64,000 bases of DNA from an uncultured Planctomycetaceae bacterium (GTDB lineage Bacteria > Planctomycetota > Planctomycetia > Planctomycetales > Planctomycetaceae): assembly GCA_963815195.1 (NCBI GenBank), contig CAWFGE010000011.1:32001-96000 (forward strand), written 5' to 3'. Below, one piece after another: positions 11,916 to 56,259 of this stretch. Position 1 is the stretch's first letter. Every line of letters begins with the position of its first letter. Position numbers and translations under genes: made by a program. The notes below the pieces were generated by a model that searched no databases, was not told the DNA's origin, and saw only the letters and a program-made list of their open reading frames with translations.

Positions 11916-12254
11916 GCCGAGGTTTAACCAATTCCTCAGCCTGAAGCCAGCGACTGGTGGCACTGTCAGTATTACGTGTGGTTTTTGTGAGTTGTTTTTC
12001 GGGTGCCACTGGCAACTTGTTGCCAGTGCGACTATGCAGTCTCCGAGATTGCGGCAGGGTGGCATGCTCATGGCTTTGCATGAGCATGCGATACGAAGAA
12101 ACTTGAATCTCTTGGAATCGAACGGCACGCCCACTCCAGGCAGTGATAAAAACTCACCTTGTCACTTCCTGGATGCTTGCGAGACATGCTCATGCAAAGC
12201 CATGAGCATGCCACCCCGCCGAGGTTTAACCAATTACTCAGCCTGAAGCCAGCG
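11916..12254. repeat. 37-bp direct repeat (11916-11952, 12218-12254) enclosing two REPIN-like palindrome pairs
   Basis: gccgaggtttaaccaatt(c/a)ctcagcctgaagccagcg twice; inside are 11953-12029 and a perfect 32-bp inverted pair 12057-12088 / 12185-12216. Confidence 0.9.
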
Positions 12255-12483
12255 CAATGGACGGTTTTTCAAGGCGATGTCTGGTGGCGCACGGTCATGC
12301 CGCGGCTCTAATCGTAGCGATTCTGCCGGTCTGAGGGTTTCCGGCCGCCGTTGTTTCCGGGAATCAACGCGAGTGTGCCACTGGCTCCGCCAGTGCGGTT
12401 TTGAGACAATCGTTGTGACGAGGCGCCCGTAGCCTGCTTCAATCGTTCCGGTCTTTGCCACTTCGATGCTCTGGAGCAATCCC

Positions 12484-13062
12484 ATGCCTCATCGGAAAAC
12501 CGTTCGGCATTATCATGAACCGGGCCATCTCCATGAGTTCACTTTCTCCTGCTATCAACGTCGGCCATTGCTGACAAACGACGATTGGCGGGAAAAACTG
12601 GCCCGCTGTCTCGACCAGGCCAACCAGGAATACCGCTTTGAACTCGTGGCATTTGTGTTGATGCCCGAACACGTCCATCTCTTGACGTATCCCCTCGAAT
12701 TAGAACCAAACTTCGGGGGCTATCTTGCTCAAATCAAGCAGCCTTTCTCCAAGCAAATCAAACAGGTGCTCACCGAAAACCGGTCGCCGCTCCTCCAACG
12801 GCTGACCGTCCGGGAACGAAAGGACAAATACTGCTTTCGATTCTGGCAGGAAGGGCCGGGGTTCGACCGAAATCTATTCAGCAAGGAGGCGATCGTCGGT
12901 TCCATCAATTACATCCACGAGAATCCCGTCAAGCGAGGATTGTGCCAAAAAGCCACCGACTGGAAGTGGTCCTCGGCCCGATATTATTTGAATGAACCGC
13001 CCGGTCAACAGGAAGCCGATTTACCCTTGATCCACGGCCCTCCCATAGGCATGCTGGACTAA
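12484..13062 (+). CDS. REP-associated tyrosine transposase (RAYT / TnpA-REP, Y1 HUH)
   Basis: HEFTFSC, FVLMPEHVHLL (HUH), FWQEG, YIHENPVKRGL, DWKWSS; flanked by inverted GTGCCACTGGC..GCCAGTG palindromes. Confidence 0.92.
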   Translation: MPHRKTVRHYHEPGHLHEFTFSCYQRRPLLTNDDWREKLARCLDQANQEYRFELVAFVLMPEHVHLLTYPLELEPNFGGYLAQIKQPFSKQIKQVLTENRSPLLQRLTVRERKDKYCFRFWQEGPGFDRNLFSKEAIVGSINYIHENPVKRGLCQKATDWKWSSARYYLNEPPGQQEADLPLIHGPPIGMLD

Positions 13063-13348
13063 CTCCGGCAAACACACTGGCAGAGCCAGTGGCACACAAA
13101 CAGATCGTGTTCCGCTTCGGAGAGAACGACTACTATCGTTGGGAACAAGAAATCAACGAGCCGTAGTCGCAGGAACATTTCACCGAGGCACTGGCGGAGC
13201 CAGTGGCACACAAGATCCGCCAGTGCCACCCCGCCGGATGGTCAAGCCTTGCTTTTTGGAAAGTCGGCGGTCTTTCATGGAAAACCCGTGTTCAAAGCCA
13301 TCGGGAAATACGTCGGGCATTCCGCCCGGCACCGTAGGATTGGACCTA

Positions 13349-13900
13349 TTAATCATTGCTTTGGTGATAGCGGAAATCAAATGCTGCGAATGCAAAAAAA
13401 CCGTAAATTTCAGAAAGGATCAATGGAATAGTACAATTGGAAATTCGGCCAATATTCCCCTTGCCATAAACCCAAAGGCAAGGGGATTGAGTAGTCACGT
13501 CAGAATAGATTTCTCTCCCGAGACAATAAAGCCTCCACTCATTTTCAATAGAATTTGGAAACACAATTCGGACAACGTCTTCTTCCACATCCACATGGAT
13601 TGCACAAGAATTGAACATACTAACGATTTCTACTATTTCTGGATTGCTCGGTAGAGCTAATAGGTTCTTGAAATCGTCAAAAACCTTGCTATAGCCGCCA
13701 TTGGCCAGTTTTGGGACAACAGGCAAATCCTGAAGTTGACCTTTCATGACCTCCATATTTAGGAGATCATCTTTTGGGAGAGAGCAGGAATCAAAACCGC
13801 TAAATTGCTTAGATGATATGAGTGTGTTCCGAATAAACTCCACAGGATTCGGTTGGAGAAAATTTGCTTCCCATTCTGCAAAAAAATCATCGTCACTCAT
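13349..13900 (-). CDS. AT-rich hypothetical protein (REP-bounded cargo)
   Basis: 183 aa ORF with AAGGAGAG RBS; low GC; may continue by frameshift at the A7 run near 13395. Confidence 0.55.
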   Translation of the reverse strand: MSDDDFFAEWEANFLQPNPVEFIRNTLISSKQFSGFDSCSLPKDDLLNMEVMKGQLQDLPVVPKLANGGYSKVFDDFKNLLALPSNPEIVEIVSMFNSCAIHVDVEEDVVRIVFPNSIENEWRLYCLGREIYSDVTTQSPCLWVYGKGNIGRISNCTIPLILSEIYGFFAFAAFDFRYHQSND

Positions 13901-14004
13901 CTAAACTCTCCTTTACAACTGAGGTTATACTATACAAAAGCAACCTTCCTTGAGCATGTTTAATTTCCAACAAGCCAAGTAGGGTCCGCTGTGCGGACCG
14001 TTTT

Positions 14005-14216
14005 TTACTCCCCGGCGTCGGTGACTCTCGCCACGTTTTCGGGAACCGCCGCACCACATCCCCAATCGATGGGATAAACTCCCGCTTTCACCCAACGGTG
14101 AAATGATGAATACGGCCAATCCTTCGGGCATCTTACATAGCCATGTTTGACGGGGTTCCAATGAATATAGTCGAAATGGGCCTCGAAATCATCCTCATCC
14201 TCAATCGTGTGTTGCC
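14005..14216 (-). pseudogene. C-terminal fragment of a second RAYT
   Basis: WQHTIEDEDDFEAHFDYIHWNPVKHGYVRCPKDWPYSSFHRWV; no N-terminus or HUH motif; GTAGGGTCCGCTGTGCGGACC REP on both sides. Confidence 0.88.
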
Positions 14217-14927
14217 AGCCAAGTAGGGTCCGCTGTGCGGACCGTTTTTTACTCCCCGGCGTCGGTGACTCTCGGCGGGGTGGCACTGGCGGACCTTGTG
14301 TGCCACTGGCTCCGCCAGTGCCTTGGTGAAATGGTTGCGGGACTCAGGCTGGCTGATTTTCTGTTCCCCAAAAAACAGCAGACTTTGTCTCCGAAGCAAA
14401 ATGCGATGCCAGGCGAACTTTGTCCATCGTCTCAACAATTGTCTCAAAACCGCACTGGCAGAGCCAGTGGCACACTCGGCCCATCCGTCCGCCGCCCCGC
14501 AAAATCAACGTGTTCCTGCTCTTCGCTTGGTTCTCCGCTCCATCTCTAGCGGTTCTGACGGTCTGAGGGTTTCCGTCCGCCGTTGTTTCCGGGAATCAAC
14601 GCGGCGCTCGCGGATTTTGTTGACGGCCGGCAACTGGGGCCTATGTTTTCCTACCCTCTCAAAAACTGGCTCTCAGCATGCGGGCGGGGCACGTTCTGTT
14701 TTCAGAACACGCCCCGATCCCGCATGCGCGGGCCGTTCGTTCTGTTCGATGCGACCGGAGCGAACGCCTCCGCGAATTGTATTGATAAAACACCCGGTCA
14801 ACTCCGTCCGATTGTGGGGCGGTTGATCGTCTTCGAGCGTTCGCCTTCGCCCACACGAAGCGGGCCGCCCGAAAAATTCCCTCAATGATTTTGCAACTCT
14901 GATCCGCTAGAGCCAAAGAGAGGCATC

Positions 14928-16325
14928 ATGAAGACGAACCACGGCTCGTTGCTGGTGGTCGATGACGACCAGCACGTTCTATCCGCAATGGCCGACTATC
15001 TTCGCAGTTTCGGGCACCGCACCGAGACCGCCGCCTCCTGCCAGGAAGCGAAAACCCGCATGCGGGAGTTTCCCTTCGAGGCGGTGATCTGCGATGTGCA
15101 CCTCCCGGACCAGGACGGCTTCCAGCTTCTCGAATGGGCCCTCGACGAGAAGCCCGAAACCGCGATGATCCTGCTCACGGGCTACGGCACGATCGAAAGC
15201 GCCGTCGAAGCCATCCGCATGGGCGCGTTCGATTATCTCACCAAGCCCGTCATCGACGAGGAACTCCATCTCGCCATTCAGCGGGCGCTCGGGCAGCGGA
15301 AGATCGTCGAAGAGAACAAGAAGCTCAAGCAGCAGCTCGACGAGCGGTTCGGGATCGGGAACATCGTCGGCCACGATTACAAGATGCTGCGGATGTTCGA
15401 TTTGATCGAAAGCGTGGCCGCCACCCGCACCACGGTCTTGATCCTGGGCGAAAGCGGGACGGGCAAAACGATGACGGCCCGCGCGATCCATCAGCTCAGC
15501 GACCGCCGGGACAAGCCCTTCGTGGAAGTCGCCTGCGGCGCGCTTCCCGAGAACCTTCTGGAGAGCGAACTCTTCGGCCACGTCGCGGGTTCCTTCACGG
15601 GAGCCACGGGCGACAAGGTGGGAAAATTCCTGCAAGCCGACGGCGGCACGATCTTCCTCGACGAAGTGGCGACCGCTTCGCAAAGCCTGCAGGTCAAGCT
15701 GCTCCGCGTGCTCCAGGACCGCGAGTTCGAGCCCGTCGGCGGGAACAAAACGCACAAGATCGACGTGCGGCTGATTCTCGCCACGAATGCCGACCTCGAA
15801 GACATGGTCGCCAGCGGCGAGTTCCGCGAAGATCTGTATTACCGCATCAACGTGATCTCCGTCACGCAGCCGCCGCTCCGCGAACGCATCGGCGATATTC
15901 CGCTGCTGGTCGAACATTACCTCACCCAGTTCAACGCGCAGACCGGCAAAGAACTCAAAGGCTTCGACGAATCGGCGATGCACTTCCTGCAGCAATACGA
16001 CTGGCCCGGCAATGTCCGCGAGTTGGTCAACGTTGTCGAGCGGGCGGTGGTGCTGTCCAAGAACGAAGTCATCACGGCCGGCGATCTGCCTGAAAAAGTC
16101 CGCCAAAGCGATCGGCACCCGGCCCGGTTCGTCGTGGCGGGCGCGGGGAGCAATCTCAAATCCGCCATGGCCACGCCCGAACGCCAGATCATCGTCGATG
16201 CCCTGGAAGCCAACGGCTGGAATCGCCAGAGCACCGCGAAGATGCTGGGCATCAACCGCACCACGCTGTATAAGAAAATGAAAAAGTACGACATCGAGTA
16301 CGAGAAGGAAAAGCAGCTCGTTTGA
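14928..16325 (+). CDS. Sigma-54-dependent response regulator (NtrC/AtoC family)
   Basis: Receiver domain, [30 protein letters not shown]-terminal Fis HTH. Confidence 0.95.
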
Positions 16326-16435
16326 TCTCTTGGAAGGAGCAAAGGCCACAGAGGAGCAAAGGCCGCAAAGTTGAAAGCCGCGTAGCTGCCCGGGCTACGC
16401 GGCTTTCGTTCTTTGTTGGACTCGCTCTGCCGCTT

Positions 16436-17721
16436 TCAAAACGGGACCGGCAGCAAGAAGGCGTGGTGCTGGAACAGGACCCATTTGCCCTGGGCACCGA
16501 TGAACTGCGTGAAGAACAGCAGAAACACATACAGCCCCAACAGCGGAGGCATCAGCCAGCGGGCGAGCCATCTCCAGCCGAACCACGCCGGCCGCGGTTT
16601 GTGCATCCCGCGGTAATACGCCCAGCCGGCGAGCACCTTGGCGGGATAAATGCTGACGATGAACAACGGCGTCAATAGCACCAGCGCATCCCGCGGCGGC
16701 AGGACGATTTTGGAAAGATACAAAGGCAGCGCCAAAACATACACGCCCAGGATCGCGAACATGAATGCGACCGGGGCATTGCGAAACGCGCGCCGAATCG
16801 AGCGAAGCTCGAAGAATGCTCGCCAACGATTTTCCGCGGCGAACCGGGCTTGCAAAAACGGCAGCCAACTGAGGACGAGCATCAATAGCACGCCGCCCGC
16901 AATTGTCACCAGCGCGGCCCCGCCTTCGGGTTTGTCCGCCGCCGCGAAAAAAAAGGTGGGCACAGCGAGCCAGGCGAAGGCCCCCACCAATCCGCAGCCC
17001 CAGCGAAAACAAATGCCCGATCCGCCAGCGGGCGATGAAGTCGCGCACGTTCTCGTCCGCCGATCTTAGCGAACCCGTTTTCCGCGACCGCCATCGCCCG
17101 AGCATGTACCGCAGATTTTTAAGCGGCCGAAAGAAGCACCCAAAACTCCCGCCCCGCGCGAGGGCCAGGCAAAGATGGATTGCGATCAACACCGACGCGA
17201 CCGTCTTCGCCGTTTGCCAGCCGGCCGTTTGCGGGCTCGCGGGATCGATCAATTTCGCATCCGAGGCGTAGCTGCCGATCAAAAACAGCGGCAGCAGCCA
17301 AAACCCCACGCCCAACACAATGGAACCGAGCCGGGGCGCAGAGTTCCAACATCGGAAACGCATCGCGAAGCCGGCCCCGCCGAGCGACCCGGCCCTCGAC
17401 TTCCAGAAGGTATCCCAAGGCGAGAATCTGCACAACCGGAATCGCCGCCACGATCGCCCACAACCCGACGAGCGCGAGAATCCCGAGTCCGTTCCGCACG
17501 AACCACGCCGACGCCCGAAGCGGATGTTTGAGCAAATGCGGGCAGCGGGGGATCGGCGGGAAATTCGGCAACGGCGGAAGCTCGTCGCTTTCCCACTCCG
17601 CCAGATGATCGGCGGATTCCAGCGCGGGTTCTGCGCACAAAACCAGATCGCCGTCGCCCGACTCGTCTTCCGACAAAGCCGGCGAAATCGCGGATCGCTG
17701 GGCAAGCAGTTCCCGTTCCAT
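16436..17721 (-). CDS. Membrane protein (DUF4013-like), two frameshifts
   Basis: Segments in 17119-17721, 16395-17705 and 16436-16990 join into a polytopic protein (AIPVVQILALGYLLEVEGRVAR). Confidence 0.6.
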
Positions 17722-17758
17722 TGGCAGATCGATGGTTTTAAGTACGCGTTTGTAAACC

Positions 17759-17844
17759 TGAGCGGTAGGCGCTACCTAGCCTCCGGTCTCGATGAAGAAA
17801 AATCCGTCGAAACCAAAACGGGCGGCGAGCGCCTTGCCGCTCAC
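17759..17844. repeat. REPIN of the GTGAGCGG family
   Basis: tgagcggtaggcgcta...cgccttgccgctcac; related copies at 41015-41120 and 59856-60067. Confidence 0.75.
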
Positions 17845-17993
17845 TTTGGCGGAAACAGGCCGACTAAAATAGGGTTACCTCGATCGGGCCGAGACGAGTT
17901 TCAAAGATTTGCTGAAACGCGGCGAATGTCCATCGAGTATAGTCAAAGTAACCGCAAAGTTCGCGTGTGGAACCGGGAGTGTTTTGGGTGGCG

Positions 17994-19658
17994 ATGCGAA
18001 AGTTTCTCGTGCCGGCGTCGGTGGTGCTCGGCGTGTGTTGGCTGGTCGGCTGGGCCGTGAATAGTCCGGTCGAGCGCGGCCTGCCCGCAGAGACTCCCGA
18101 GGTGCAAGAAATCGCTGGCATCGCGGAGCAGGTCGATCGCCACTTTGAGAAACAATGGGCAGCCGAGCAACTCACGCCCGCGAAACCGGCGGACGAGTTG
18201 CACGTCCTCCGCCGACTGGCGCTCGCGCTCCACGGCACGATTCCTTCGCTCGAGGAAATCCGCCGCTTTGAAGCCGACGAAAACCCCGGCCGCCTTGCCC
18301 GCTGGACGGCGGCGATGCTCGACGACCGCCGGTTCGCCGACTATTTCGCCGAGCGATTGGCCCGCGGTTTTGTCGGCACCGAGGGCGGGCAGTTTATCGT
18401 GTATCGGCGAGACCGGTTTGTGAGTTGGCTCGCGGATGAGCTGCACCAGAACCGCCCTTACGATGCCATCGTCCGGCAGATGATTCAGCAGGACGGCCTG
18501 TGGACCGGGCAGCCCGAGGTCAACTTTATGACGGCCGCGTTCAACGAAGGCGAGTTCGACGAAAACAAACTCGCCGGCCGCACCGCGCGGGCGTTTCTGG
18601 GGCAGAGCATGGACTGCGCCCAATGCCACGACCATTTCTTCGCCGAGTGGACGCAGGAGCAATTCCAAGGCCTCGCCGCGTTTTATGGCCAGGCCCGCTT
18701 GAGCCTGGTCGGTTTGACCGATCAAACCAAAAACAAAACAGGCCCCGTCGAATACCGTTACGAAAAACGTATCCAGGAGAACGGCGAGGAAGTCGTCCAA
18801 GAAATCGAAATCGCCCCGGCGGTGCCGTTCGGCGAGGACTGGCTCCCGAAAGAAGGCAGCCGGCGGGAACGGCTGGCGGCGTGGATTACCCATCCCCAAA
18901 ACCGCCGGTTCGAGCGGGCGATTGTCAACCGCGTGTGGGGCCTGATGTTCGGCCGGCCTTACACGGCCACTTTGGAAATCCCCGCCGCCGTCGATGACCT
19001 CCCCAATCCGAAACCGCTCACCGCGGATTTCCAGGGCGATCTCTTGGACATCTTGGGGCGGGATTTTCGCGAGCACGGCTGCGATCTCCGCCGATTGATT
19101 CTGGCGATCGCCGCGTCCCGGCCGTTTGGCTTGTCGTCCATTCATCCCGCGGAAACTTTGGCAGACTACCAGCGGCACGAAGCGGCCTGGACGGTGTTTC
19201 CCGTCACGAGACTCCGCCCCGAGCAGGTCATCGGCTCCATGCTGCAGGCGGCTTCGGTGAAGACCATCGACCAGAACTCGCATCTGTTGGTGCGGACGAT
19301 CAAGTTCTTCCGCCAGCGGGATTTCGTCAACAATTACGGTGACCTGGGAGCGGATGAACTTCAGGATCGCTCCGGCACGATCGCCCAGGCACTCTTGCGG
19401 ATGAACGGCACGCTCTCCAAGGAATTGACGGACGCAAGTTTGTTTTCCAGCAGCGGCCGCATCGCCGACACCGCCGGCAGCGATCAGACATGCCTGGAGG
19501 CGCTCTATCTCGTCAGCCTCACCCGCCGCCCCACGAAAGCAGAAACCGCCGCGTTCTTGCCGCAATTAACAGACACCCAAAAAGAGAACCGCAAACGGGC
19601 CGTGGAAGACATCATGTGGCCGCTGTTCAATTCCGAAGAGTTCTCGTGGGACCACTGA
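17994..19658 (+). CDS. Planctomycete DUF1549/DUF1553 protein
   Basis: LRRLALALHGTIPSLEE, FLGQSMDCAQCHDH, RAIVNRVWGLMFG, QALLRMNG. Confidence 0.9.
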   Translation: MRKFLVPASVVLGVCWLVGWAVNSPVERGLPAETPEVQEIAGIAEQVDRHFEKQWAAEQLTPAKPADELHVLRRLALALHGTIPSLEEIRRFEADENPGRLARWTAAMLDDRRFADYFAERLARGFVGTEGGQFIVYRRDRFVSWLADELHQNRPYDAIVRQMIQQDGLWTGQPEVNFMTAAFNEGEFDENKLAGRTARAFLGQSMDCAQCHDHFFAEWTQEQFQGLAAFYGQARLSLVGLTDQTKNKTGPVEYRYEKRIQENGEEVVQEIEIAPAVPFGEDWLPKEGSRRERLAAWITHPQNRRFERAIVNRVWGLMFGRPYTATLEIPAAVDDLPNPKPLTADFQGDLLDILGRDFREHGCDLRRLILAIAASRPFGLSSIHPAETLADYQRHEAAWTVFPVTRLRPEQVIGSMLQAASVKTIDQNSHLLVRTIKFFRQRDFVNNYGDLGADELQDRSGTIAQALLRMNGTLSKELTDASLFSSSGRIADTAGSDQTCLEALYLVSLTRRPTKAETAAFLPQLTDTQKENRKRAVEDIMWPLFNSEEFSWDH

Positions 19659-19949
19659 AGCCCTTCGGGAAATCCCAATGTCCAAGCACCAATGACCAAT
19701 AAGATTTCATGTCCTAATTCCCAAGCTCCTGGGAGGGAGGGAAGTAGGAACCACGAATGACACCAATAACACGAATTATTTAAGATAGATTTGACCGCCG
19801 ATAGTTCAGTTTACAGGGACGGAAACTACAAAGAAGAAAACAATCTGATTTTTATTCAGGATCGGCATTCGCTGGGTTTTCTTCGTGTGATTCGTGTGAT
19901 TCGTGGTTGCCTTCGATTTAGTCAAAAACCTTTGATTGAGTTTGTTCCG

Positions 19950-21236
19950 ATGTTCGATTCACAAGCCATCACTCGGCGGAATGTGTTACAGGGGGCTTTG
20001 GGGCTGGGGGTGTCGTTTGCGTTGCCGGCTCTGGATTTGCAGGCGGCTCGGAAGCGTGGGGCGGAGCGGCCGAAGTCGCTGATCGTTTTGTGGCTGGCCG
20101 GCGGGCCGAGCCAATTGGAGACCTGGGACCCGCATCCGGGCACGAAGATCGGCGGCGAAACCAAATCCATCGCCACTAAGCTGCCGGGCGTCCGGATCGC
20201 GGACTTTTATCCTCATCTCGCCGAGGAAATCGATTGCCTGAACGTTATTCGCTCCTTGACATCGAAAGAAGGCGACCATGAGCGGGGGACGTATTTGCTG
20301 AAGACCGGTTTTCGCCCCGTGCCGAAATTGACGCACCCTGCGCTCGGGGCGGTGTTGGCCCACGAACGGCCTGCGCCGAAGCTCGAGATTCCCCAATTTG
20401 TTTCGCTGGGCGGCACAGAGTGGCCGGGCCGGGGCGGGTATTTGGGGGATGAGTACGATGCCTTCCGCATTTTCGATCCCGGCCGAAACATCCAAAACAT
20501 GCGGGCCCGGGTTCCCGAAGATCGCCATCAGCAACGGCTCAAGAACTTGGAAGTCATTTCCAACTCCTTCGCCAATCGCCGGCCGTTCGCTTCCCGGAAA
20601 ACGCTGCATCAGGAAATGATCCAGCGGGCGCTGACCATGATGAGTTCCGAGCAGCTCAATGCCTTCGAGATGGCAGGCGAACCGAAAGCCACCACCAAAG
20701 CGTATGGCGATTCGCCGTTCGGCCGCGGTTGCCTGGTGGCCCGGCGACTCGTCGAGCAGGGCGTCCGCAGCATCGAGGTGAACCTCGGCGGCTTCGACAG
20801 CCACGCCAACAACTATGAAGCCCACAAAACGAACGCCGCCATTCTTGACCCCGCCTTCGCAGCGCTCCTCAAGGATTTGAAGGAACGCGATCTGTGGGAC
20901 TCGACGGTCGTCTTGTGCATCGGCGAGTTCGGCCGCACGCCGACGATCAACCCCTTGGACGGCCGGGACCATTGGCCCAAGGGCTTTTCCTGCCTCGTGG
21001 GCGGCGGGGGAATGAAACGGGGCCAGGTCATCGGCGAAACCGACCCCACCGGCCAAAAAACCGACCCCGCCGACCCCATCGAAGTCAAAGACCTCTACGC
21101 CACGTTGCTGCACGTCTTCGGCGTCGAATACGGCAAAGAACTCCAAACCCCCATCGGCCGCCCGATGCGCTTAAGCGAAGGCCAACCGATCCGGCGACTG
21201 CTTCAGGCGAGCGGGGGGCGTAAGCCCCCTGGTTAG
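19950..21236 (+). CDS. DUF1501 protein (Tat-like signal)
   Basis: TRRNVL, LWLAGGPSQLETWDP, FGRGCLVARRLVEQGV, GEFGRTP, GRDHWP. Confidence 0.93.
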   Translation: MFDSQAITRRNVLQGALGLGVSFALPALDLQAARKRGAERPKSLIVLWLAGGPSQLETWDPHPGTKIGGETKSIATKLPGVRIADFYPHLAEEIDCLNVIRSLTSKEGDHERGTYLLKTGFRPVPKLTHPALGAVLAHERPAPKLEIPQFVSLGGTEWPGRGGYLGDEYDAFRIFDPGRNIQNMRARVPEDRHQQRLKNLEVISNSFANRRPFASRKTLHQEMIQRALTMMSSEQLNAFEMAGEPKATTKAYGDSPFGRGCLVARRLVEQGVRSIEVNLGGFDSHANNYEAHKTNAAILDPAFAALLKDLKERDLWDSTVVLCIGEFGRTPTINPLDGRDHWPKGFSCLVGGGGMKRGQVIGETDPTGQKTDPADPIEVKDLYATLLHVFGVEYGKELQTPIGRPMRLSEGQPIRRLLQASGGRKPPG

Positions 21237-21351
21237 CCATGAACGCTCAGGTTGCCGCCAATGGTTTTTGTCGTTTCAGAAACATTCGGCAATCGAATTG
21301 GGATTCACGAAACCAGGGGGCTGACGCCCGGGCTGACGCCCCCCGCTCGCC
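21206..21351. repeat. REPIN of the GGCGAGCGGGGGGCGT(A/C)AGCCCCCTGGTT family; single copies at 22272-22300 and 57742-57769
   Basis: Inverted pair 21206-21234 / 21311-21351, the latter with a 12-bp internal tandem duplication. Confidence 0.85.
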
Positions 21352-21410
21352 TTGGAAATTCCACAGACCTGAGTTTCCCCAGGGCGGCGCTCTGCTAAAA
21401 TGGCGGGGCC

Positions 21411-22268: not shown

Positions 22269-22371
22269 CAAGGCGAGCGGGGGGCGTCAGCCCCCTGGTT
22301 TCATGGAATATTGAAAACCATTCATCAAACAACAACCGACAAGCCACGGACAAAAGGACAACTGACAAAGA

Positions 22372-25290: not shown

Positions 25291-25293
25291 CCC

Positions 25294-31875: not shown

Positions 31876-31932
31876 AAATCCGAAATCCGAATCTCGAAAT
31901 CCGAAACAAATTCGAATGATCGAAATTCCAAA
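31876..31932. repeat. Heptamer-periodic AAATCCG/AAATTCG repeat tract; copies at 43876-43909, 45113-45180, 45225-45292 (inverted), 47309-47375
   Basis: Shared core cgaaatccgaaacaaattc at all sites. Confidence 0.85.
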
Positions 31933-46343: not shown

Positions 46344-46442
46344 CGCCTCGAAACGGTTGGGAACTCACCAACCCAACTCTCAATACGCCGCAGCCCTGCG
46401 ATTTTTTCACAAAACTGCGGAATTCTCTGAAAAACCTGCTTT

Positions 46443-46637
46443 CAACGCAAAGGCGCAAAGAAAAGACGCAAAGGGCCGCAAAGATGAAACATTTCTCCAC
46501 AATAGACTTTCTGTAGCATTTTCCTTGGCGCTTCGGCTCAGGTGTGTGTTTTGTGGTCATTCTTAAGTAAAAAACCTTTGCGCCCCTTTGCGTCTTTTTC
46601 TTTGCGCCTTTGCGTTTTTCTTTGCGCCTTTGCGTTA
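46443..46637. repeat. Inverted pair of CGCAAAG-periodic tracts
   Basis: aacgcaaaggcgcaaagaaaagacgcaaag vs ctttgcgcctttgcgtt repeats; same family as 28198/28570. Confidence 0.8.
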
Positions 46638-46666
46638 CCAAAATCGATTTCGACTTTGATTCGATA

Positions 46667-47229
46667 TCATTTACCCTCAGCACTTAGCAGTTTTTTTAAG
46701 GCCGCGAGCTCGGCTTCAACCTGGTCGGCCCGCGAGGCGTCGGCGTCGGCGTAATCCTCTTCGGGTTCCATTTCCAATTCGGCGGCCTGGTTTTCCAGCG
46801 TCAGGCCCTGTTCCAGGAGGCGGAGCTTGCGGCGAGCTTCCGTCAGCCGGGCTTCCAGGGCCCGCAGCATCGTCTGCAAGTGGTCGCGGGTCGCGATCGC
46901 GGCGGCGTGCTGCTGCTCCAGACCGGCGACGACATCTTCGATCTCCTGCTTGCGGACGAGGGCCGTCCGCGCCCGGCTTCGTTGCCTTTTTGGAGCTCCT
47001 CTTTCGCCTGGGCCATCCATTGGTCGGCCTGGGCCTGATGCTCCCCGATCTCGCGGTTCAGCCGGGCCACCGAACCGTTCGCCGTCGAGACGCTCCGCTT
47101 GGCCCCGGCCAGCCCTTCCTCCATTTCCCGCACAATCGTTTGAATCGCGGCTTTCGGATTGGATTCCTGCGACAGGATTTCCGTCAGGTTGCACGTGACG
47201 ATATCCGTCAATCGGCTGAAATAACTCAT
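46667..47229 (-). CDS. pspA: PspA/IM30-family protein, frameshift near 46975
   Basis: MSYFSRLTDIVTCNL, coiled coil, VEAELAALKK C-terminus. Confidence 0.8.
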
Positions 47230-47466
47230 CGAACAAAACCTCTCAACGAAACCCCACCGCCGGGCTTTAGTGATAAATTCTAAACCAGTGTGCGCGATTC
47301 CGGGCAGGAAAATCCGAAATTCGAATCTCGAAATCCGAAACAAATTCCAATGTCCGAAATTCGAATATCCAAACCCTGCGCGTGGACCTCTGCATCCAAG
47401 GATAACGTCTCAAATCCGTGTGCGGATCTGTATGTTTTTCTATCCACAATCCTCATTCCTCTATCC

Positions 47467-48066
47467 TCAATCCTCAACCGACTTCCGCGGATCGGAGACG
47501 CCGCGCTCTTTCAGTTTCTCCTGCAGTTTCTCCCGCGCGAGCCGCAGCCGGCTCTTGGTCGTGGGGAGCGAAGTCTCCATGACCTCGGCGACTTCGGGGA
47601 GCGACAGGCCCGCGTAATGGTGCAGCGTGAACGTCAGCCGCTGCTCTTCGGGGATCTCGTCCAACAGCCCATCCACAAGCTCCGCGAGTTCCCGCTGCCC
47701 CGCGTGAACGTCCGGCGGCAGGACTTCGCCGGCGAGCCGGGCCATCGCATCGGCCTGGTCTTTGTCGTGATGGCCTTTGACCGCCCGGATCAACGCATCA
47801 CGCGACTGCTTGCGGACGTTGTCGATCATCAAATTCCGCCCGATGCGGTACATCCAGCCCCGAAACCGGCCCTGCGGCAGATAGTCCCACGACTGGTCAT
47901 AAATCCGCAAAAGCGTTTCCTGCGCGAGATCCTCGGCCATTTGGGCATCCCGCGTGTTGCGGAAGAAAAACCCGATCAAAGGCCCTTGGTGCCGGTCCAT
48001 CAAGTCCCGAAACGCCCGCGGATCTCCTTCCTGGATTCGGACCATCAACTGATCGTCTTCCGTCAT
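47467..48066 (-). CDS. ECF RNA polymerase sigma factor
   Basis: AEDLAQETLLRI, FRGWMYRIGRN, TKSRLRLAREKL. Confidence 0.92.
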   Translation of the reverse strand: MTEDDQLMVRIQEGDPRAFRDLMDRHQGPLIGFFFRNTRDAQMAEDLAQETLLRIYDQSWDYLPQGRFRGWMYRIGRNLMIDNVRKQSRDALIRAVKGHHDKDQADAMARLAGEVLPPDVHAGQRELAELVDGLLDEIPEEQRLTFTLHHYAGLSLPEVAEVMETSLPTTKSRLRLAREKLQEKLKERGVSDPRKSVED

Positions 48067-48407
48067 GGGCGAAACTTCCCGAGTGGCGAGAACCGCACCA
48101 GCCCGGCGTTTTGGGCTGATGTTTTCTCCTCGATGAATAGATCTCAGCGGGCAAAGAGAACGGACGCAAAACCCGCGGCTGTTGACCGCGTGTTTCTGCT
48201 TTCTACTATAATACCTTTGGCTGAGAGCCGAAAGTTGAAAGAAACGGATTGGGTGGCGATCGCAAAGACCACGCCCTTCGTTCCTCAGGGACGTGCCACC
48301 CGTGCCACCCAAGTTCCTGTCTACTTTTGTGGAACACACTCTGTTTTAAACGTCAATCCCTTCACGTTTCATGGAAAAGGCTGTTTGTGTCGTTGGCGAA
48401 TTTGCGG

Positions 48408-49620
48408 ATGGTGAGCGTTCCGTATGGAACCCGAAAAGAGTTTTCCTGCGAGATCGATGCCTCGCGGATTATCGAAGTGGCTCCCAGCCCCCGGCCCCAT
48501 CCGGATTTGGCGAGCCAGCTTCGGCAGGCGCTGGCGTGCCCGCTGGATTATCCGCCGCTCGCGCGGTCGGTGATTCCCGACGACCGCGTCGTTTTGGCCC
48601 TCGACCGCGAAACGCCCCAGGCGAAGGAACTGCTCGCCGGCGTCTGGGCCGACCTGGAAAAAGCCGGCGTCCGCCCCCAAGACGTGACCCTGCTCCAGCC
48701 CGCCCCTCGATCTGGATCGCCTTTTTTGGAGGCTGCCGAGATTCTGCCGCATCCGGAGATGATTTCCGTGGTGCATGCCCCGGCGTCCGAGGACGATTGC
48801 CGTTATTTGGCCTCCACGGTCGGCGGCGAGCGGATTTATCTGGCCAAGGAACTCCTGGAAGCCGAGGTCGTGATCACCATCGGCCCGATCGCGTTCGATG
48901 CGGTGATCGGCTACCGAGGCACGAACAGCGTGTTCTATCCCGGCCTGTCGTCGCCCGCCGCCAAAGTCAAAGCCGCGGGCCAAGGGCACCGGGAGCTCGG
49001 GCCCGAGAACGACCGCCCGCTCCGGCAGTTGATCGATGAAGTCGCCTGGCTGTTGGGCTCGCAGTTTTCCGTGCAGGTTGTGCCTTCGCTGTTCGGCGGC
49101 GCGGCCCATGTGCTGGCCGGGCAATCGGACGCCGTGCTCCGCCGGGGCAAGGAACTCATCAATCAGCATTGGCTGGTCGAGTCTCGATTACCGGGCGGAG
49201 ATCGTGGTCGTCGGCGTGGAAGAAGACGCCGCGGGCCACGGCTGGACGCAGATCGGATCGGCCCTCGCCGCCGCGCGGAGCCTGGTCTCCAAAGGCGGGC
49301 GGATCGTGGTGCTGTCGGACGTGAACGTGCCGCCCGGCGAAGGCCTCAAAATGCTGATGCGCTACGAAGACGCGACCGAAGGCCTGCGCCCGCTGAGGCA
49401 GGCGGCTCCCGAAGATTTGATTCCCGCGACCGAACTCGCCGAGGCCGCGGATTGGGCCGACGTGTACCTCTTAAGCCGGTTGGACAGCGACCTCGTGGAA
49501 GACCTGTTCATGGCCCCGTTGGAATCCGAAGCCGAGGTCAAACGCCTGTTGGGCCTCGATGAGCAGGTCCTGTTCCTCCCCTCCGCCCAACACCGCTTCG
49601 GCCGCATCCGCGAGCGGTGA
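48408..49620 (+). CDS. Lactate racemase (LarA) domain-like protein, frameshift near 49185
   Basis: QALACPLDYPPL, VIGYRG...FYPGLS, VSKGGRIVVLS. Confidence 0.65.
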
Positions 49621-49684
49621 GAAACACCCGGCGAGGGAGAGCCGTAGAGTGGGCACCAGTGGGCACTCTACTTGCTGCTGGAAA

Positions 49685-49754
49685 GCACCGGCAACAAGTT
49701 GCCAGTGGCACCCGAAAGACTCTTAACAATAACCCGGACTGACAGTGCCACCCC
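49685..49754. repeat. REPIN homologous (inverted) to 11953-12029
   Basis: gcaccggcaacaagttgccagtggcacccgaaa...actgacagtgccacc. Confidence 0.85.
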
Positions 49755-51555
49755 GCCGCGTTGATCGACCAGCCAGCCCTCATCGAACAGGTTGAGGAAC
49801 GGCTTCCACACGTTGGGGTGGGCTTTCTCGGCTTCGTCCAAGAGGAACACCGCGTAGGGGTCGGCGTTGAGTTCGTTGACCAGCCGACCGCCTTGGTCGT
49901 GGCCCACGTAGCCCGGCGGCACGCCGATGATCCCCGACACCGTGTGCGGCTCGGTGAAGTTGCCCATCGAGTACACTTGTAATCGACCCGTGGCCGAGTA
50001 CAACCGGGCCAGGGCCTTGGCCAGTTCCGTTTTGCCCACGCCCGTCATCCCGGCGAACAGCAGCACCGAGGCGGGGCGGTCCGGTTCGGTCAGGCCGGCT
50101 TTGATCAGCTTGAGTTCGGTGGCCACGACCTCGACGGCCTCCGCCTGACCCACCACCGAAGCCTTGAGTGCCGCTTCGTAATCCGCCGAGCCGCCATCGC
50201 CGGAGAGCGTTTCGACCGGCACGCCCGTGAGTTCGGCGACCACCCGCACCACATCCTCGGCCCGCACCCGGTTCTCGTCCGCCGATGCTCTGAGTGCGGG
50301 CGAAGCTGACGTTCTCACAAGCCCGTCTCAGAATTTTTTCCGCCTTGGCCGGATGCCGTTCGCTGAGCACAAACGCCGAGGCCAGCGCCACCGTGCGTCT
50401 GGGCACATCGTCATCCAGTCGCACTTGATGCTCGCGTTCGAGTTCGTCTCGCTTCGCTTCCAGAAACGCCAGGCTCTCCTCATCGCTGGGCTCATCGATT
50501 TCGATGCGGGTGATGAGGTCCGAAAGCCCGGCATCGCCAGCCAGGAGGTCTTGATATTCCCAAGTCGAGAGACTGCCGATCAATTGCAATCCCGACCGCG
50601 TGAGCACCGCCCGCAGAAAGGCCAGGTTATCGGCGGAGCGTTTGAGGAGCGGACCCAAGCCATCCAGACACAGCACCAGATTCTCCCAATCCCCCACCTC
50701 ACGGACGATTCGCTCCAACACCGCCCGCCCATCTTCGGGCGGCACACTCGAACAATCCAACCGCAAAAACCGCTTGTCGGCCAGAAACGGATACCGCCCC
50801 TCCGCCGCCCGCCGCGCCAGTTCCCGAAGCACCACCGTCTTGCCCACCCCCTTATCCCCGGTCACCACCACATGCTTCGCCTCCCCCCGAAACAGCGACC
50901 GAGCCATCTTCTCATACACATCCCCCTGGGCAAAACTCCGCTCCATCGCCGCCGGCAACCCACCCGACAAAGCCAAAAACGTCAAATCCTCCGCCCCCAA
51001 TGCTTGCCGCATCACCGGCGAAAGCCGCTCCGTCCAATCATCCACCGAAGTGCGTTTCCTCCGCCTCATTGCCGGTTTCTTCTTCCCCCTGCTCAAACTC
51101 CACCTGAAACGGCAACTTCTCAAACACCTGCTTCAAGAAATGCGGCGCCTCCGCCAAAACCGCCGCCCAAAGATGCTGCGGTTCGATCTGTGATCTGCAT
51201 CGTTCTCCGCAAACTCGAAGGCCGTCACTAACACCCGCTGCACATCCTCCGTCAGGAAGTTGCGTGATAGTTCTAACGGTTTCCGTGGTGTTTCCTCGGC
51301 TCCAACGACCTCCTTCAGTTTCGCCGTGAGTTCTTGAACTGCCTCAGCATTGTCACCCTCACTCGGCTGATCGATCATTGAGAGCAGCAACGCGCTGAGG
51401 CCAATTTGCGCATGGCCTAATTGTTCGGCTTGGATCAACGACTTTTCGATAATGAGCCATGCCGTTTCGCCGAACAAATCTTCTGACAAGGCGACTGATC
51501 CACCAGGAAACAGCGTATCCGAAGGAATCTCGTTATTTACATCAACAGTGGACAT
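49755..51555 (-). pseudogene. ClpA/ClpB/ClpV-type double AAA+ ATPase, 3'-truncated, ~3 frameshifts
   Basis: Clp-N-like repeats, GDKGVGKT, GMTGVGKTELAKALA, GVPPGYVG, LLDEAEKAHP; similarity stops at GWLVDQRG where the REPIN begins. Confidence 0.85.
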
Positions 51556-51717
51556 ATTCGTATATTCCCGAAAGATAAGAGGATTTCATTCCCATATTGC
51601 TATCTAATGGTTTGTCGATGTCCCACCATGCTCGATTCATCCCCTTGTATTGTGCCATTTATCTCGCACAGCAACCTCCCCAAACACTGGCCGTCAACAG
51701 TAGCAATGATTTGACGT

Positions 51718-52518
51718 TCACAGGAAAATCAGATTCTCAGCCTTTAACGTGTCAAAAACAGCTTGGCGCTGATTATCAGAAACTTCCCAGAGCTTGACTC
51801 GCTCATCGATTTCCTTCAATGTTCCGCGTGAAGGGTCTGCCTTGATCCATTCCTCCAAACGCTTACCCTCCACATTACCATCGAGTTGATACGACGTCAG
51901 AAAATTCCACGGATAAACATCTCGAAGAATACCCTTCTTATAAACCTCGTTAGGTATGGCGTTATATCCCCATCGCGAAATTCTGAGACCCTCAGCATCT
52001 CTCTCTTTTTCTATCTCCGGTGAAGGATCTGGAGAGCGATATTTATTCAATCCCACTGCATACAAAACTGGCCCTAAACTGTGAGCACGAGCGTAACCAA
52101 TCCCATAGCATGGCTGGAGCTTCTCGCAGATCGTATGTGCAAATTCAGTCAACAATGTGTCTTCGAAATTCAAAAACGTCTTTCGAACTCCAAACGTGAA
52201 GTACGACTCCTCGCGAAGGTCTAAATCAGCCGTCGCCTCCCAATCTGAAACAGGTATCTTACCACCAGGAGTCATACGATAAATCGATATTCCTTCGACA
52301 TTACTTATGCCAGTACGTTGGAGCCTAGGATGGATTCGTTGAAATGAGCCTGGTCGTCCGGAAAAGCCCGTGCCGGTGACAGCAAGTTTGTCCGGCCCTA
52401 GTCCAAGTCTGGAAAAAAAATCAAGCAGAGCGTGATAAAATGATGTGACTGGCTTTGCACGCTTGCGCAATCCATAGAAAGCAAGCGCCACACACTCATC
52501 AGAAGCTTCATCAATCAT
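51718..52518 (-). CDS. Putative immunity protein
   Basis: Starts ~20 bp after the toxin stop with AAGGA RBS; low GC; GILRDVYPWNFL...LEEWI...LWEV. Confidence 0.6.
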   Translation of the reverse strand: MIDEASDECVALAFYGLRKRAKPVTSFYHALLDFFSRLGLGPDKLAVTGTGFSGRPGSFQRIHPRLQRTGISNVEGISIYRMTPGGKIPVSDWEATADLDLREESYFTFGVRKTFLNFEDTLLTEFAHTICEKLQPCYGIGYARAHSLGPVLYAVGLNKYRSPDPSPEIEKERDAEGLRISRWGYNAIPNEVYKKGILRDVYPWNFLTSYQLDGNVEGKRLEEWIKADPSRGTLKEIDERVKLWEVSDNQRQAVFDTLKAENLIFL

Positions 52519-52539
52519 GCTTTTATCCTTTCTCAAATT

Positions 52540-54176
52540 TCAAATTGGATCGCGGTCCAAGACCCGAATCTCACCCTGTTTGTCATCTGGCAATCGCTGC
52601 ATTTCGCTAGATAATCTTGATCGAAGTTCTCGAGCTGTATCTCCTTCCGACAAAACTTCCCAGGCATCAACTTTGCCATCACATCTAATGCCGATAATGT
52701 CTGGGCGGAAGCCTGAGGGATTTTCACGGCCTGTTGCGGTCCGCCAAGCCAAATCCATTGTCAAATACTGATACTTTCCAGTTTTGGCTTGTTCTTCCGC
52801 AATCCGCCGCACGGTTTCCGCATGTGGATTTAGTCCCGTGGTTTCGTCATCAGATCCAGTTTCTTGAGCTTCTCCGTAAACAAAGACTGGGCCCTTAGAA
52901 CTGTAGTATACTTGCGCACCAAATCCAGTTCGATAAACTATGTCAAAACCACTGTCGCATTCATTGTCCAATTCGCACTTTTCAGCGATCGCTTCTGCCA
53001 AAGCGTAGACGGCCTCCACAAGCGTTCGATACATGCGAGATTTTTCTTTGCCGATTCCCTTTGTGAGTCGTATATTATCGTAGTCTCGTTCCGCATGTTC
53101 GACTGCATCCTTCTCACTCTGAACTTTCTTTTTGCATTTTGCGGACATCCCATCCCAATCCTTGGTCGGACTGGCCTTAATCCAGATCGTCCCGCCTTTA
53201 TCAATCCAGACTGTGGCGAGTTGCTTCTTCGCACGAGCCGTTTTCGCAAAGACTTTATCATCGGATTTTATCCCAAACTTTGCCCCAACAGCTTTGACAA
53301 CTCTCTCAATCGGTGAGAACACAGCTTCCACAAGCTTTTGCAGAAGTTCGTCTGCTTTTTTCTCTAGGCCGCCGAGAGCTTCGCTGATCTTTCCAGGTAA
53401 GTCAGCGATCTGCGCAATTTTCGCAATGAATTTGAAAATGGGAACCAATGTGTCCGAAAGCCCCTGTTCGACCTTTGTCGCGATGGTGCCAACCGCCTTA
53501 CCGGTGACGACATCATCGACCGTTTCCACAAACTTATTCAGCAAGCATCTCAGGCCGGGACAACTTTCAAGGAAGCCGGCGATCACATCCAGAATCAAAA
53601 GAATCCAACCGGCTCCCGGAACGGCCTTGACCAACAGCTTCGTGACCAGTTTGGCGATGAAGCCCGGGAGGATGTCGGTAATAACGTTTGTGAACAGGGA
53701 GCCAATGTTTTCTTCCAACTTTTGTGGTAGCTGCTGCAAATACTCAAATGCCTTGTCGGCCCATGTCCCCAGAATATCCTTGATCCAATCAATACCGGCG
53801 TCAATCCCTTTATCGGCAAACTCTTGCAAAGCCCCTGCCGCTGACATGAAAAATCCGATAGCGCCCGGCAGGATCTGGTCAGCCTTGGAACGCACGTTTT
53901 CAAACGTCCAACCCAGAGTGTCGGCAAGCACCTTCACAAGCCCAAGGAAATTGAATTTTGGATAAATGGCATTAACGAAGCCTTGAAAATCAATTTTATC
54001 CAGCTTCGTCCATTTCTTGAGGGCGTTTCCGAGTCTCTTGAAAAACTTATTTGGATCCTTAAATCGCTCGAATCCCTGTCCTACGCCTTCGGCAAGGGTC
54101 TGAAAAGCCTTTTGGCTGCCGCCAAAAATCAAATCGAGCAGTTTCGATCCGGCATTGGCACCATCTGTAAGTTTTT
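52540..54176 (-). pseudogene. 5'-truncated polymorphic toxin: helical delivery-type domain plus putative PD-(D/E)XK nuclease tip
   Basis: Frame is open into the REP at 54177 with no convincing start; amphipathic helical region; C-terminal RPDIIGIRCDGKVDAWEVLS. Confidence 0.65.
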
Positions 54177-54224
54177 GTAGGGCAGGCTCCCGCCTGCCTT
54201 TTTCCGTTATTTGGCAATCGTCAA

Positions 54225-56002
54225 CCCGGATTATTCATCAGGTCCGTGCGTGGTGAGTATTTCCGTGGCGGAAAGTGCACAGGGTGGTTGGGGAGCGGAG
54301 GATGGGCGGACCGCCCCCTTTCCCCCTGGGGCCTGGCGATCGTTGGGTGAGTGAAGGAAAGAAACAGAAAGGCGGATGCCACGATGGCGAACTGCTCAGT
54401 CCCGAAGAACCAGTTGCTCATGGGCGTGACGTGGGAGAGGTGTGTAGGGCCGCGGGCGAGCTCCACGCGGACGTGGCCAGAGGTTGGCCAGACGCAGCGA
54501 TCGGATGCGGGAAGACATCGCGGCCCAAAACGCGCTCACGCTTTCCTCAATGTAAATCACGAGGCGGCGGGAGTGCTTCACGACCCGCGCTCCTGTCCGC
54601 AGCACCGACTGCTGGAAACGATGCAAGTCCCAGCAACCGCCCAACTCGTCCTCGAACTCGATCCGCAGCATCGACGCCAGGTTGAACGCCAGCAGGCCCA
54701 ACAGCAACGTCACTTCGTTCTCCGCAAACACCGATGACGAAAGACGGCAGCCAATCACCGCGTTGAATTCGCCCAGCCGGTCCTCGAACGTGCCGCGCTT
54801 GCGGTAGTGCGACAACACCTCATCCGCCGAGCGTTGCTCCTCGGTCCAGTTTGTGATCAGGAAGAAGTAACGCGGAAACAGAGCCAGTTGGCCCGTCTTC
54901 GCCTCCGGCTTGTCGACGATGACCAGAATCACCCGCTGCGGATGACGCCAGCCCTCGGCTTGGTACTTTCCGAGTTCGATCACGTCCTCATATCCCCCTT
55001 TGGGCGGCCGGCCCGCGGGACGTGTCAGATAGGGCGCGGCCATCTCTTCCAGCACGTTGTTCTTCTTGATTCTCCCGCAAAAACGGATGTTTTCGTCGGT
55101 CAACTCATCCAACACCGGGCCGGCGATGAAACCCGCATCGATCCGGAGGTCGAAGCTCCACGCCAGTTGCCGGGCCTTGCCGACCACGTTGCGAATAAAC
55201 CGCCGGATGCCATTGGCCGTATGCACGCTGCCTTGCCGCAGGATGGCATGAATGAAGCCGTTCCCCAGCCGCTGGCCTTCCCGCGCGCTATCGTAGTCGC
55301 CGCCGACCGAGAAACTAGCGACCAGCGGATGATAGACGGTCTCCTTGTAGTAACCGTTGTAGCGGGCCCCCGGCTGCTGGCCATAAACCTGCATCGGGAA
55401 ACTGTCGATGTCGATGGTGGCGTAGCGGACGCGGCGGTCGCTGTCGCCGGTGCTTTTGATGTGCCGATGGATCCAGTCGAACAAGGCGCTCCGCACGGCC
55501 TCGAGATTCGTCTTGCAGTCGGCCAGCCAATCGATGAGCCGGGATTGGGTGGGTTGGCTGGCCAGGCGTTGGTTGAGCACTTCTTCGCCGGGCCGGTCCC
55601 AGGCGGCCATCTTCATGGCGGGATCATGGGCGAGCCGGTCGAGATCATCCTGATCGGACTCTCCCAGGGCCATGGCGTAGATTCTTTCCCGCAGCAGTTC
55701 GACGCCTTGATAGCGGACGCGGTCTTGCCGGCGAGGATCGATCAGTCGATCGGCAAGGGATTCGGTGAGTCCGAGCCGATGATCGAAGTCCCGCAGCAGA
55801 ACGGCACCGGAGTGTGACGTGAGCCGCCCATCGACGGCCTTGACCTTGATGGAACGATTGAAATCGGGCTCGAAAATGTTAGGCTGAGCTTCACCCATCG
55901 CGTGATTCCTCCGTATGGTGTTGGGATTGCATATAACACTTAAACGCAGAGGGTCACGCGATGGTTCCTTCTTTTTTCAGCTTTTTTGGTGAATAATCCG
56001 GG
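54225..56002 (-). mobile_element. IS1380-family insertion sequence, 1778 bp
   Basis: 13-bp TIR cccggattattca / tgaataatccggg; 5-bp TSD GTCAA at 54220-54224 and 56003-56007. Confidence 0.92.
54396..55898 (-). CDS. IS1380-family DDE transposase
   Basis: LTSHSGAVLL, LASQPTQSRL, IDIDS, YHPL, RIDAGF, YRKRGTFEDRLGE. Confidence 0.92.
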   Translation of the reverse strand: MGEAQPNIFEPDFNRSIKVKAVDGRLTSHSGAVLLRDFDHRLGLTESLADRLIDPRRQDRVRYQGVELLRERIYAMALGESDQDDLDRLAHDPAMKMAAWDRPGEEVLNQRLASQPTQSRLIDWLADCKTNLEAVRSALFDWIHRHIKSTGDSDRRVRYATIDIDSFPMQVYGQQPGARYNGYYKETVYHPLVASFSVGGDYDSAREGQRLGNGFIHAILRQGSVHTANGIRRFIRNVVGKARQLAWSFDLRIDAGFIAGPVLDELTDENIRFCGRIKKNNVLEEMAAPYLTRPAGRPPKGGYEDVIELGKYQAEGWRHPQRVILVIVDKPEAKTGQLALFPRYFFLITNWTEEQRSADEVLSHYRKRGTFEDRLGEFNAVIGCRLSSSVFAENEVTLLLGLLAFNLASMLRIEFEDELGGCWDLHRFQQSVLRTGARVVKHSRRLVIYIEESVSAFWAAMSSRIRSLRLANLWPRPRGARPRPYTPLPRHAHEQLVLRD

Positions 56003-56196
56003 GTCAATCAATAGAAAATAGAAGGCAGGCAGGAGCCTGCCCTACTCGCCTGCCTTTTTCCGTTATTTGGCAATCGTCAATCAATAGAAAATAGAAGGCA
56101 GGCAGGAGCCTGCCCTACTCGACTGTTCCTCCCCTCCGCCCAACACCGCTTCGGCCGCATCCGCGAGCGGTGAGAAACACCCGGCGAGGGAGAGCC

Positions 56197-56259
56197 GTAG
56201 AGTGGGGATCGCCCACCATTATTTGGTCGAGAACCATTGGTGGGCGATGCCCACCCTAC
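56197..56259. repeat. GTAG-type REPIN
   Basis: gtagagtggggatcgcccacc and inverted ggtgggcgatgcccaccctac. Confidence 0.8.

Follow-up and report, generated by a model that had tools for sequence, protein, structure and literature searches.

The 64,000-nucleotide stretch analysed here (the window; positions 32001-96000 of contig C11) belongs to the metagenome-assembled genome of a Planctomycetaceae bacterium (G000; 8.87 Mb in 25 contigs, 59% GC). It contains an intact gene for a repetitive extragenic palindrome (REP)-associated tyrosine transposase (RAYT, also TnpA-REP; 12484..13062, plus strand, 192 amino acids), together with REP hairpins tagged GTGG or GTAG and five long direct duplications. 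Across the genome, local duplications of otherwise unique sequence begin a few nucleotides outside REP ends, at a dinucleotide that changes with the REP class. This footprint is real and statistically strong, and represents an undescribed product of a known kind of system.

A RAYT gene among REP hairpins and direct duplications

The naming of the gene at 12484-13062 as a RAYT in the initial annotation is borne out by the family search: its product scores 99.7 bits against NCBIfam NF047646 (cut-off 80) and stays below the cut-off for IS200-type transposases (NF033573, 26.3 bits vs. 55). The translation carries HUH, WQ, and Y-x3-NP motifs, and this motif set, together with the abundant flanking GT[AG]G-tagged hairpins, places it among the class 2 Y1 HUH enzymes, whose signature is given in PMC6006769. 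G000 has six Y1 matches and additional broken members of this RAYT clade, mostly adjoining GTGG-tagged hairpins. The same GTGG REPs flank the intact gene, with GTGG-class REP arms 3' of it (13074..13236), and several of the broken relatives. Three RAYT loci are situated within or across duplications, namely that of the window and those on contigs C13 (near 59-64 kb) and C15 (near 624-627 kb). The relatives at C13:58900-63900 and C13:936700-939500 are frameshifted, partly duplicated (271 bp) or insertion-split, and the one at C15:625689-626105 is curtailed at a GTAG-class REPIN, a pair of inverted REPs at short spacing.

Over-represented words in G000 resolved into GTGG-tagged hairpins, GTAG-tagged hairpins, and several other families. 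The two tagged classes comprise 446 and 197 ends, respectively, and form 121 GTGG and 44 GTAG doublets with the REPIN arrangement; seven of eight folded REP arms are hairpins (z at or below -2.9). Of a first set of 54 GTGG ends, 96-98% are followed by CG, and at GTAG ends CT tends to lie 4-5 nt beyond the tag. Many copies of the largest GTGG REPIN family bear an extra tail of 15-25 nt outside the CG on one or both sides (156 ends; both sides 46, neither 41), and duplications are commoner at ends with a 5'-only tail (8/35 vs. 3/34). A family of another kind (c8, including contig C14 near 100-102 kb) has about 50 copies of a 37-nt repeat at regular spacing and resembles a CRISPR array.

The initial annotation had listed five duplications in the window as signs of a candidate DNA-capture system. 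All five exist at the coordinates then given, and four of them obey the single genome-wide rule described below. The 37-bp copies (11916..11952 and 12218..12254, plus strand, one mismatch) enclose 265 bp (11953..12217) that consist of two GTGG-class REP units, 98% of which have second copies elsewhere in the genome; by sequence reading and by the anchored test, the left copy abuts a GTGG REP end at CG, and the onset of the right copy is the CG closing the REPIN. The 57-bp copies differ at three positions. The resident copy (14547..14603, plus strand) lies 5' of a sigma-54 response regulator gene and is single in the related genome G001, and the extra copy (12315..12371, plus strand) has a minus-strand CG joint to the REP adjoining the RAYT gene. 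Between them lie the RAYT gene, a low-GC open reading frame (ORF) of 183 amino acids (13349..13900, minus strand, GC3 0.37), which is a passenger without a family match, and the identical 58-bp copies. The left of these (13973..14030, plus strand) contains a GTAG REP and has a minus-strand boundary at CT; it is separated by a single-copy insert of 186 bp (14031..14216) from the right copy (14217..14274, plus strand), which has a CG joint to the end of a GTGG-class REPIN of about 205 bp (14275..14480), a close relative of which occurs four times at locus L007 of G001. In both the 57- and the 58-bp pair the REP-end joint is on the minus strand.

The identical 84-bp copies span the largest insert. 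The left one (49570..49653, plus strand) starts with CT and comprises the last 51 bp of a LarA-like gene, a spacer, and the start of a GTAG REP; the right one (56123..56206, plus strand) begins at CT four bases beyond a REP end. The LarA-like gene itself (48249-49620) appears in two overlapping frames, owing to a frameshift or an assembly error. Inside the pair are a ClpA/ClpV-like AAA+ gene in pieces (49668..51555, minus strand; identified by translation and family match), part of which is 85% identical to a REPIN-bounded fragment at L007 of G001, and two low-GC ORFs of 272 and 530 amino acids (51718..54132, minus strand), single-copy passengers without a family match. For the 530- and 183-amino-acid passengers we found no Pfam or NCBIfam match and no usable Atlas match.

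The exception is the 73-bp duplication, in which most of a GTAG REPIN is repeated head to tail, an IS1380-family insertion sequence (IS) element having split the first copy. The first part of the 73-bp unit (54191..54224, plus strand) is followed by the element (54225..56002, minus strand) and then by the remainder of the first unit and the second unit, terminating in a GTAG REP end (56008..56121, plus strand), so that the pair is composed of 34 bp (54191/56047) and 39 bp (56008/56081). The element belongs to this family, with 13-bp inverted ends, a DDE_Tnp_1_4 transposase, and 274.8 bits against the NCBIfam IS1380 model (cut-off 180); it is multi-copy in G000 and G001 (at least five near-full copies in the latter), and with its 5-bp target duplication it represents an independent later insertion. 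Because the DNA enclosed by the 73-bp pair is this element, the pair is no example of capture, and the earlier reading of it as captured cargo is set aside.

Two further repeats lie elsewhere in the window. A separate intergenic family of approximately 35-bp units occurs at 31882, 43875, 45249, and 47311; one of its 20-mers is found 49 times in the genome, it forms a tandem array at locus L003 of G003, and it has no duplication signal at its ends. An exact 55-bp inverted copy at 6396 and 59941, 53 kb apart, is a member of another dispersed repeat family.

Duplications begin at REP ends across the genome

An unanchored list of genome repeats was too noisy for interpretation. In the anchored test, the onset of locally duplicated, otherwise unique sequence of at least 20 bp was recorded for each repeat end at offsets of 0-100 nt, with onsets at 0-8 nt classed as near and those at 9-100 nt as far. 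Seven other repeat families served as controls, from which the regularly spaced CRISPR-like family was excluded. Near and far onsets numbered 23 and 26 in the GTGG class and 8 and 7 in the GTAG class. Once duplicates had been removed conservatively, 17 of 39 GTGG pairs are near (7.9-fold enrichment, p 1e-8), as are 8 of 13 GTAG pairs (16-fold, p 3e-6), compared with 11 of 76 pairs in the control families (1.7-fold, p 0.07). The enrichment at REP ends anticipated by the initial annotation is thus supported. The near onsets represent 20 distinct GTGG and 8 distinct GTAG pairs with lengths of 23-317 bp, including the 37-, 58-, and 84-bp pairs of the window; the 57-bp pair was missed by the anchors and has the same minus-strand CG joint by direct reading.

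The joint lies 4-7 nt beyond the GT[AG]G tag. All 23 near GTGG onsets have CG within the first 4 nt common to both copies, vs. 10 of the 26 far onsets, and CT is common to the first 4 nt of both copies at five of the eight near GTAG onsets. As the second copy displays the target, the target itself must have carried the dinucleotide. In the largest family, 18 of the 156 REPIN ends are preceded, within 150 nt upstream, by a copy of at least 20 bp that starts with CG, vs. 0.15 expected, a count that includes tandem arrays.

Structure of the duplicated pairs and related genomes

With X as the duplicated stretch and A and B as the outer flanks, 20 of the 23 GTGG and six of the eight GTAG near onsets read, in order, A, X, an insert with a REPIN at its end, the joint, X, and B. 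The REP-end joint is precise; the opposite one is imprecise and may lie in a tail of 5-30 nt, within the first REP, or kilobases upstream. The 37-bp pair and three of the 121 GTGG doublets are the only cases with REP ends at both inner joints. Inserts range from 0 to 6.5 kb, often with broken content. They measure at most 450 bp in 19 of the 28 distinct pairs, mostly a REPIN with little else, and three pairs with inserts of 0-1 bp are pure tandem copies. Small inserts are nearly all REPIN, and large ones consist of single-copy DNA, IS elements, and REPINs. A long ORF is overlapped by 12 of the 28 pairs; in 11 of these the overlap is at the start or stop of the ORF and the gene remains whole, a distribution for which selection can account.

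Comparison with G001, G002, and G003, which belong to the same genus, covered six G000 loci outside the window. Empty sites are present in G001 at three of these loci (77, 36, and 229 bp), where X is single and continues into the right flank without a REPIN; at the other three, X is single with different neighbours, or synteny is broken. The pattern named in the initial annotation as fatal to its proposal, both copies without an insert, was seen in none of the relatives examined.

Several observations point to two alleles. Copies around inserts larger than 450 bp are more diverged (25/1134 bp) than those around small inserts (15/1329 bp; p 0.04). At the 229-bp locus, X continues into the start of the G000 insert in G002 and G003 and into the right flank in G001, and at one of two differing bases the copies divide between the G002/G003 and G001 lineages. 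For the 57-bp pair of the window, G001 has the base of the left copy at all three variable sites, yet the upstream flank of the right copy, and the pattern is therefore not what a fresh target duplication predicts. The cases with large inserts are read best as two alleles that would have been spliced at a REP end.

Passenger genes

Among 25 ORFs hand-picked from regions of this kind were four SMI1/KNR4, three SUFU, and one Imm22 member, families that we take to be toxin-immunity proteins, and nine ORFs without a match. In G000, two of eight SMI1/KNR4 or SUFU genes are found no more than 300 bp from a REP end (p 0.02 against a background of 3%; p 0.08 at 1 kb), and the evidence for an immunity-gene specialization in this genome is weak. 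A 1-kb passenger at the 229-bp locus is 88% identical to a G003 sequence beside a GTGG REPIN at another locus, with core flanks at about 76%.

Comparable clusters occur elsewhere. At L007 of G001, four near-identical REPINs lie between SMI1/KNR4 and ankyrin ORFs, and a repeat of about 45 bp near 180 reappears, by eye, directly after the last REPIN end near 9030. The whole stretch (L007:1-9530) holds SMI1/KNR4, ankyrin, and other ORFs among near-identical GTGG and GTAG REPINs; it lies 5' of a carbamoyl-phosphate-synthase-like gene (named from its translation), with an ISAzo13-type IS inside a duplicated stretch. A further G001 locus (L001:5400-12000) matches window positions 12300-14550 and holds three or more ankyrin-SUFU genes with IS-like ORFs among them; the hot spot is the same, but its passengers are others. 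In G000 itself, locus L030 (C15:246500-255000) has tandem ankyrin-gene copies with GTAG REPINs between them and duplications of 61 and 163 bp at REP ends.

Origin of the joints

Known activities of TnpA-REP are strand transfer and single-strand cleavage at CT flanking a REP on either side (PMC3333891, PMC8266576). We infer from the sequences that a RAYT is involved here, and the account that we favour, and hold to be reasonably probable, is that of one-ended joints made by RAYT at REP ends, the other end being closed by host functions. The enzyme would nick single-stranded DNA at the dinucleotide in both donor and target and move the REPIN strand onto the target, creating the precise joint, and host synthesis or recombination would finish the other end by one of three routes. 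In cis, rolling-circle-like copying could produce tandem X-REPIN units. Displacement synthesis from the free end of the target, continuing until the 5' end of the donor is caught, could produce inserts made of a REPIN alone, their 5' tails varying. The kilobase-size cases might be explained by homologous recombination of the locus with another of its alleles; here X would be the stretch common to both alleles, from the nick to the end of homology. Donor-strand DNA 5' of the REPIN would travel too, and we propose that foreign genes therefore build up at such sites as a by-product.

Several points weigh against this account. The REP motif families were defined from G000 itself, and the anchored statistic rests on this one assembled genome. 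One GTGG family with 134 ends yielded no near onset in the anchored test, and three of the eight GTAG onsets lack CT in the first 4 nt. The published guide rule pairs GTAG with CT and GTGG with CC or CA (PMC8266576), and GTGG joints at CG conflict with it, which is a real gap. Cleavage at CC according to this rule was considered and rejected, since the base 5' of CG in the target is not C in four of six cases. No donor with a matching flank was identified within the genome for the REPIN-only inserts. The check for empty sites in relatives, successful at the loci outside the window, produced no clean one for the window's own pairs; for the 84-bp pair, G001, G002, and G003 each have the gene end once, with different neighbours. 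Finally, most REPINs have no duplication, and duplications of 4-8 bp are not in excess at the 156 ends of the largest family, a result on which we rejected the idea of short target duplications of continuously varying length at REPINs. With an excess at 20 bp and above and none at 4-8 bp, the footprint is therefore bimodal and marks a minority of REPINs, and the joints may accordingly be a secondary event rather than the normal route of insertion.

That the host alone made the joints is fairly unlikely. REP hairpins might stall replication forks or be cut by host nucleases, with template switching or 2-nt microhomology following and the RAYT a bystander; REP clusters are known recombination hot spots (PMC11708052), the two-allele signs require host recombination at one end only, and CG is frequent at 59% GC. 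However, the other abundant repeat families lack a significant enrichment, the joint keeps a fixed offset outside the hairpin, and the dinucleotide changes with the REP class, CT being a known site of the enzyme. The pairs might also be true long target-site duplications, the REPs of a REPIN each directing a nick on their own strand, with tens of bases between the nicks. The 37-bp pair and three GTGG REPINs (33, 77, and 22 bp) with both inner joints at REP ends fit such staggered cutting, and the 77-bp case has an empty site in G001, but the second joint of most pairs is neither at a REP end nor at CG or CT, and diverged copies and native DNA inside the insert would be left unexplained. With both joints at REP ends in only three non-tandem cases among the 121 GTGG doublets and one tandem case among the 44 GTAG doublets, we rejected staggered cutting as a general rule and regard it as very unlikely to explain the pairs. 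An artefact of assembly or binning at hairpin repeats is extremely unlikely, even though the genome is metagenome-assembled and some genes look frameshifted. Contigs from public sequencing runs span no complete pair, those of runs X2 and X3 touching the repeats only; in one run, possibly the source sample, two difference-free short-read contigs each stop 30 nt into the 58-bp repeat from their own upstream flank, as expected of a real repeat. The copies moreover differ by up to 12/169 bases, an assembler would not be expected to follow a strict class-specific dinucleotide rule, and by eye the REPIN-end repeat at L007 of G001 is alike.

A dedicated, integron-like system, in which RAYT and REPINs gather small genes such as toxin-immunity genes into arrays, is unlikely. 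The L007 array, the SMI1/KNR4 (four), SUFU (three), and Imm22 (one) members among the hand-picked ORFs, and the 1-kb passenger shared with G003 at an identity above that of the core flanks would suit it; the ORFs were, however, chosen by eye, a REP end is at most 300 bp away for only two of the eight G000 SMI1/KNR4 or SUFU genes, 19 of the 28 pairs enclose no more than 450 bp, and passengers are often broken or IS-interrupted. The initial annotation's proposal that RAYT activity inserts foreign DNA and duplicates its target gains from the enrichment at REP ends, the RAYT in place, the family-specific joint dinucleotide, the empty sites, and the single-copy low-GC DNA inside several pairs. Its extension to DNA capture fares less well given the many small inserts, the one example of the five that is an IS1380 in a tandem repeat, large cases that often look like two alleles rather than fresh duplications, and weak evidence of specialization in a class of cargo. 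We consider it possible, if doubtful, that RAYT/REPIN systems provide horizontal gene integration with a general route, in which RAYT would ligate the REP end of incoming DNA to a resident CG or CT and the other end would recombine by homology. If so, the process would place passenger genes, including immunity arrays and the RAYT gene itself, behind host genes that stay intact, and would account for many insertions with long target duplication.

Comparison with known systems

The Y1 HUH enzyme adjoining GT[AG]G hairpins and the CT joint dinucleotide match the published RAYT/TnpA-REP systems (PMC3333891, PMC8266576), as do the tandem REPIN-plus-flank arrays and the asymmetric unit with a 5' tail (PMC3116915, PMC3333891, PMC8266576). 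Tandem REPIN-plus-flank clusters and asymmetric excision were described by Bertels and Rainey in 2011 (PMC3116915), and Ton-Hoang and colleagues proposed rolling-circle-like amplification of bacterial interspersed mosaic elements and sequestering of flanking genes in 2012 (PMC3333891). The cargo-capture route that the initial annotation took to be undescribed therefore has a precedent in what was proposed for TnpA-REP. In the portions of these papers available, the long target duplication starting from the cut dinucleotide and the CG site are not described and are features of G000; likewise, tnpA-REP is reported there without mobility, whereas three RAYT loci in G000 lie inside or across duplications. 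A literature search of limited coverage returned no paper linking RAYT/REP ends to long duplications from the cut dinucleotide. How REPINs spread and what RAYT does inside cells are described as open questions (PMC3337134, PMC8266576), and the approximately 28 preserved joints in G000, in which donor end and target site are both readable, lead to the prediction that the RAYT makes one joint, at CG or CT, that the host makes the other, and that the duplication is variable.

Other single-strand systems share parts of this pattern. IS200/IS605 and IS91/ISCR elements also nick and transfer a single strand at a short conserved site, and ISCR elements and Helitrons capture neighbouring genes (PMC3333891, PMC10288648); IS200/IS605 and IS91/ISCR elements make no target repeats according to the available part of PMC3333891, in contrast to the duplications of 23-317 bp in G000. 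By these duplications and by its subthreshold NF033573 score, the system falls outside the IS200/IS605 family. Integron cassette systems have uniform single-gene cassettes, one recombination site each, and a dedicated integrase; G001 has array-like loci, but the size of the inserts here varies between 0 and 6.5 kb, and many of them are broken. An HUH precedent for the footprint is Replitron-1, known from Chlamydomonas (Craig 2023), which has an HUH transposase, a precise end at a dinucleotide, a fuzzy end with donor flank, and a variable duplication that includes the target dinucleotide (PMC10288648), but it is an autonomous element of the eukaryotic Rep type with short terminal direct repeats and belongs to neither the RAYT nor the REP systems.

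A further parallel is the insertion with long target duplication described for restriction-modification genes (Furuta 2010, PMC2853133; Nobusato 2000 cited there). In both cases long variable direct repeats, which often include a start or stop codon, enclose genes, and a relative has the empty site (PMC2853133); in G000, a repeat of more than 30 bp that is single at the empty site of a relative was found at three of the six loci. The inserts examined here are not restriction-modification genes but REPINs, RAYT pieces, IS elements, and small genes. Furthermore, the restriction-modification genes have no linked element in the portion of that study available (PMC2853133), whereas one boundary in G000 is fixed to the REP end and a dinucleotide. 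If the account of one-ended RAYT joints is true, it would tie RAYTs to gene gain and provide a mechanism for long target duplications hitherto linked only to restriction-modification genes.

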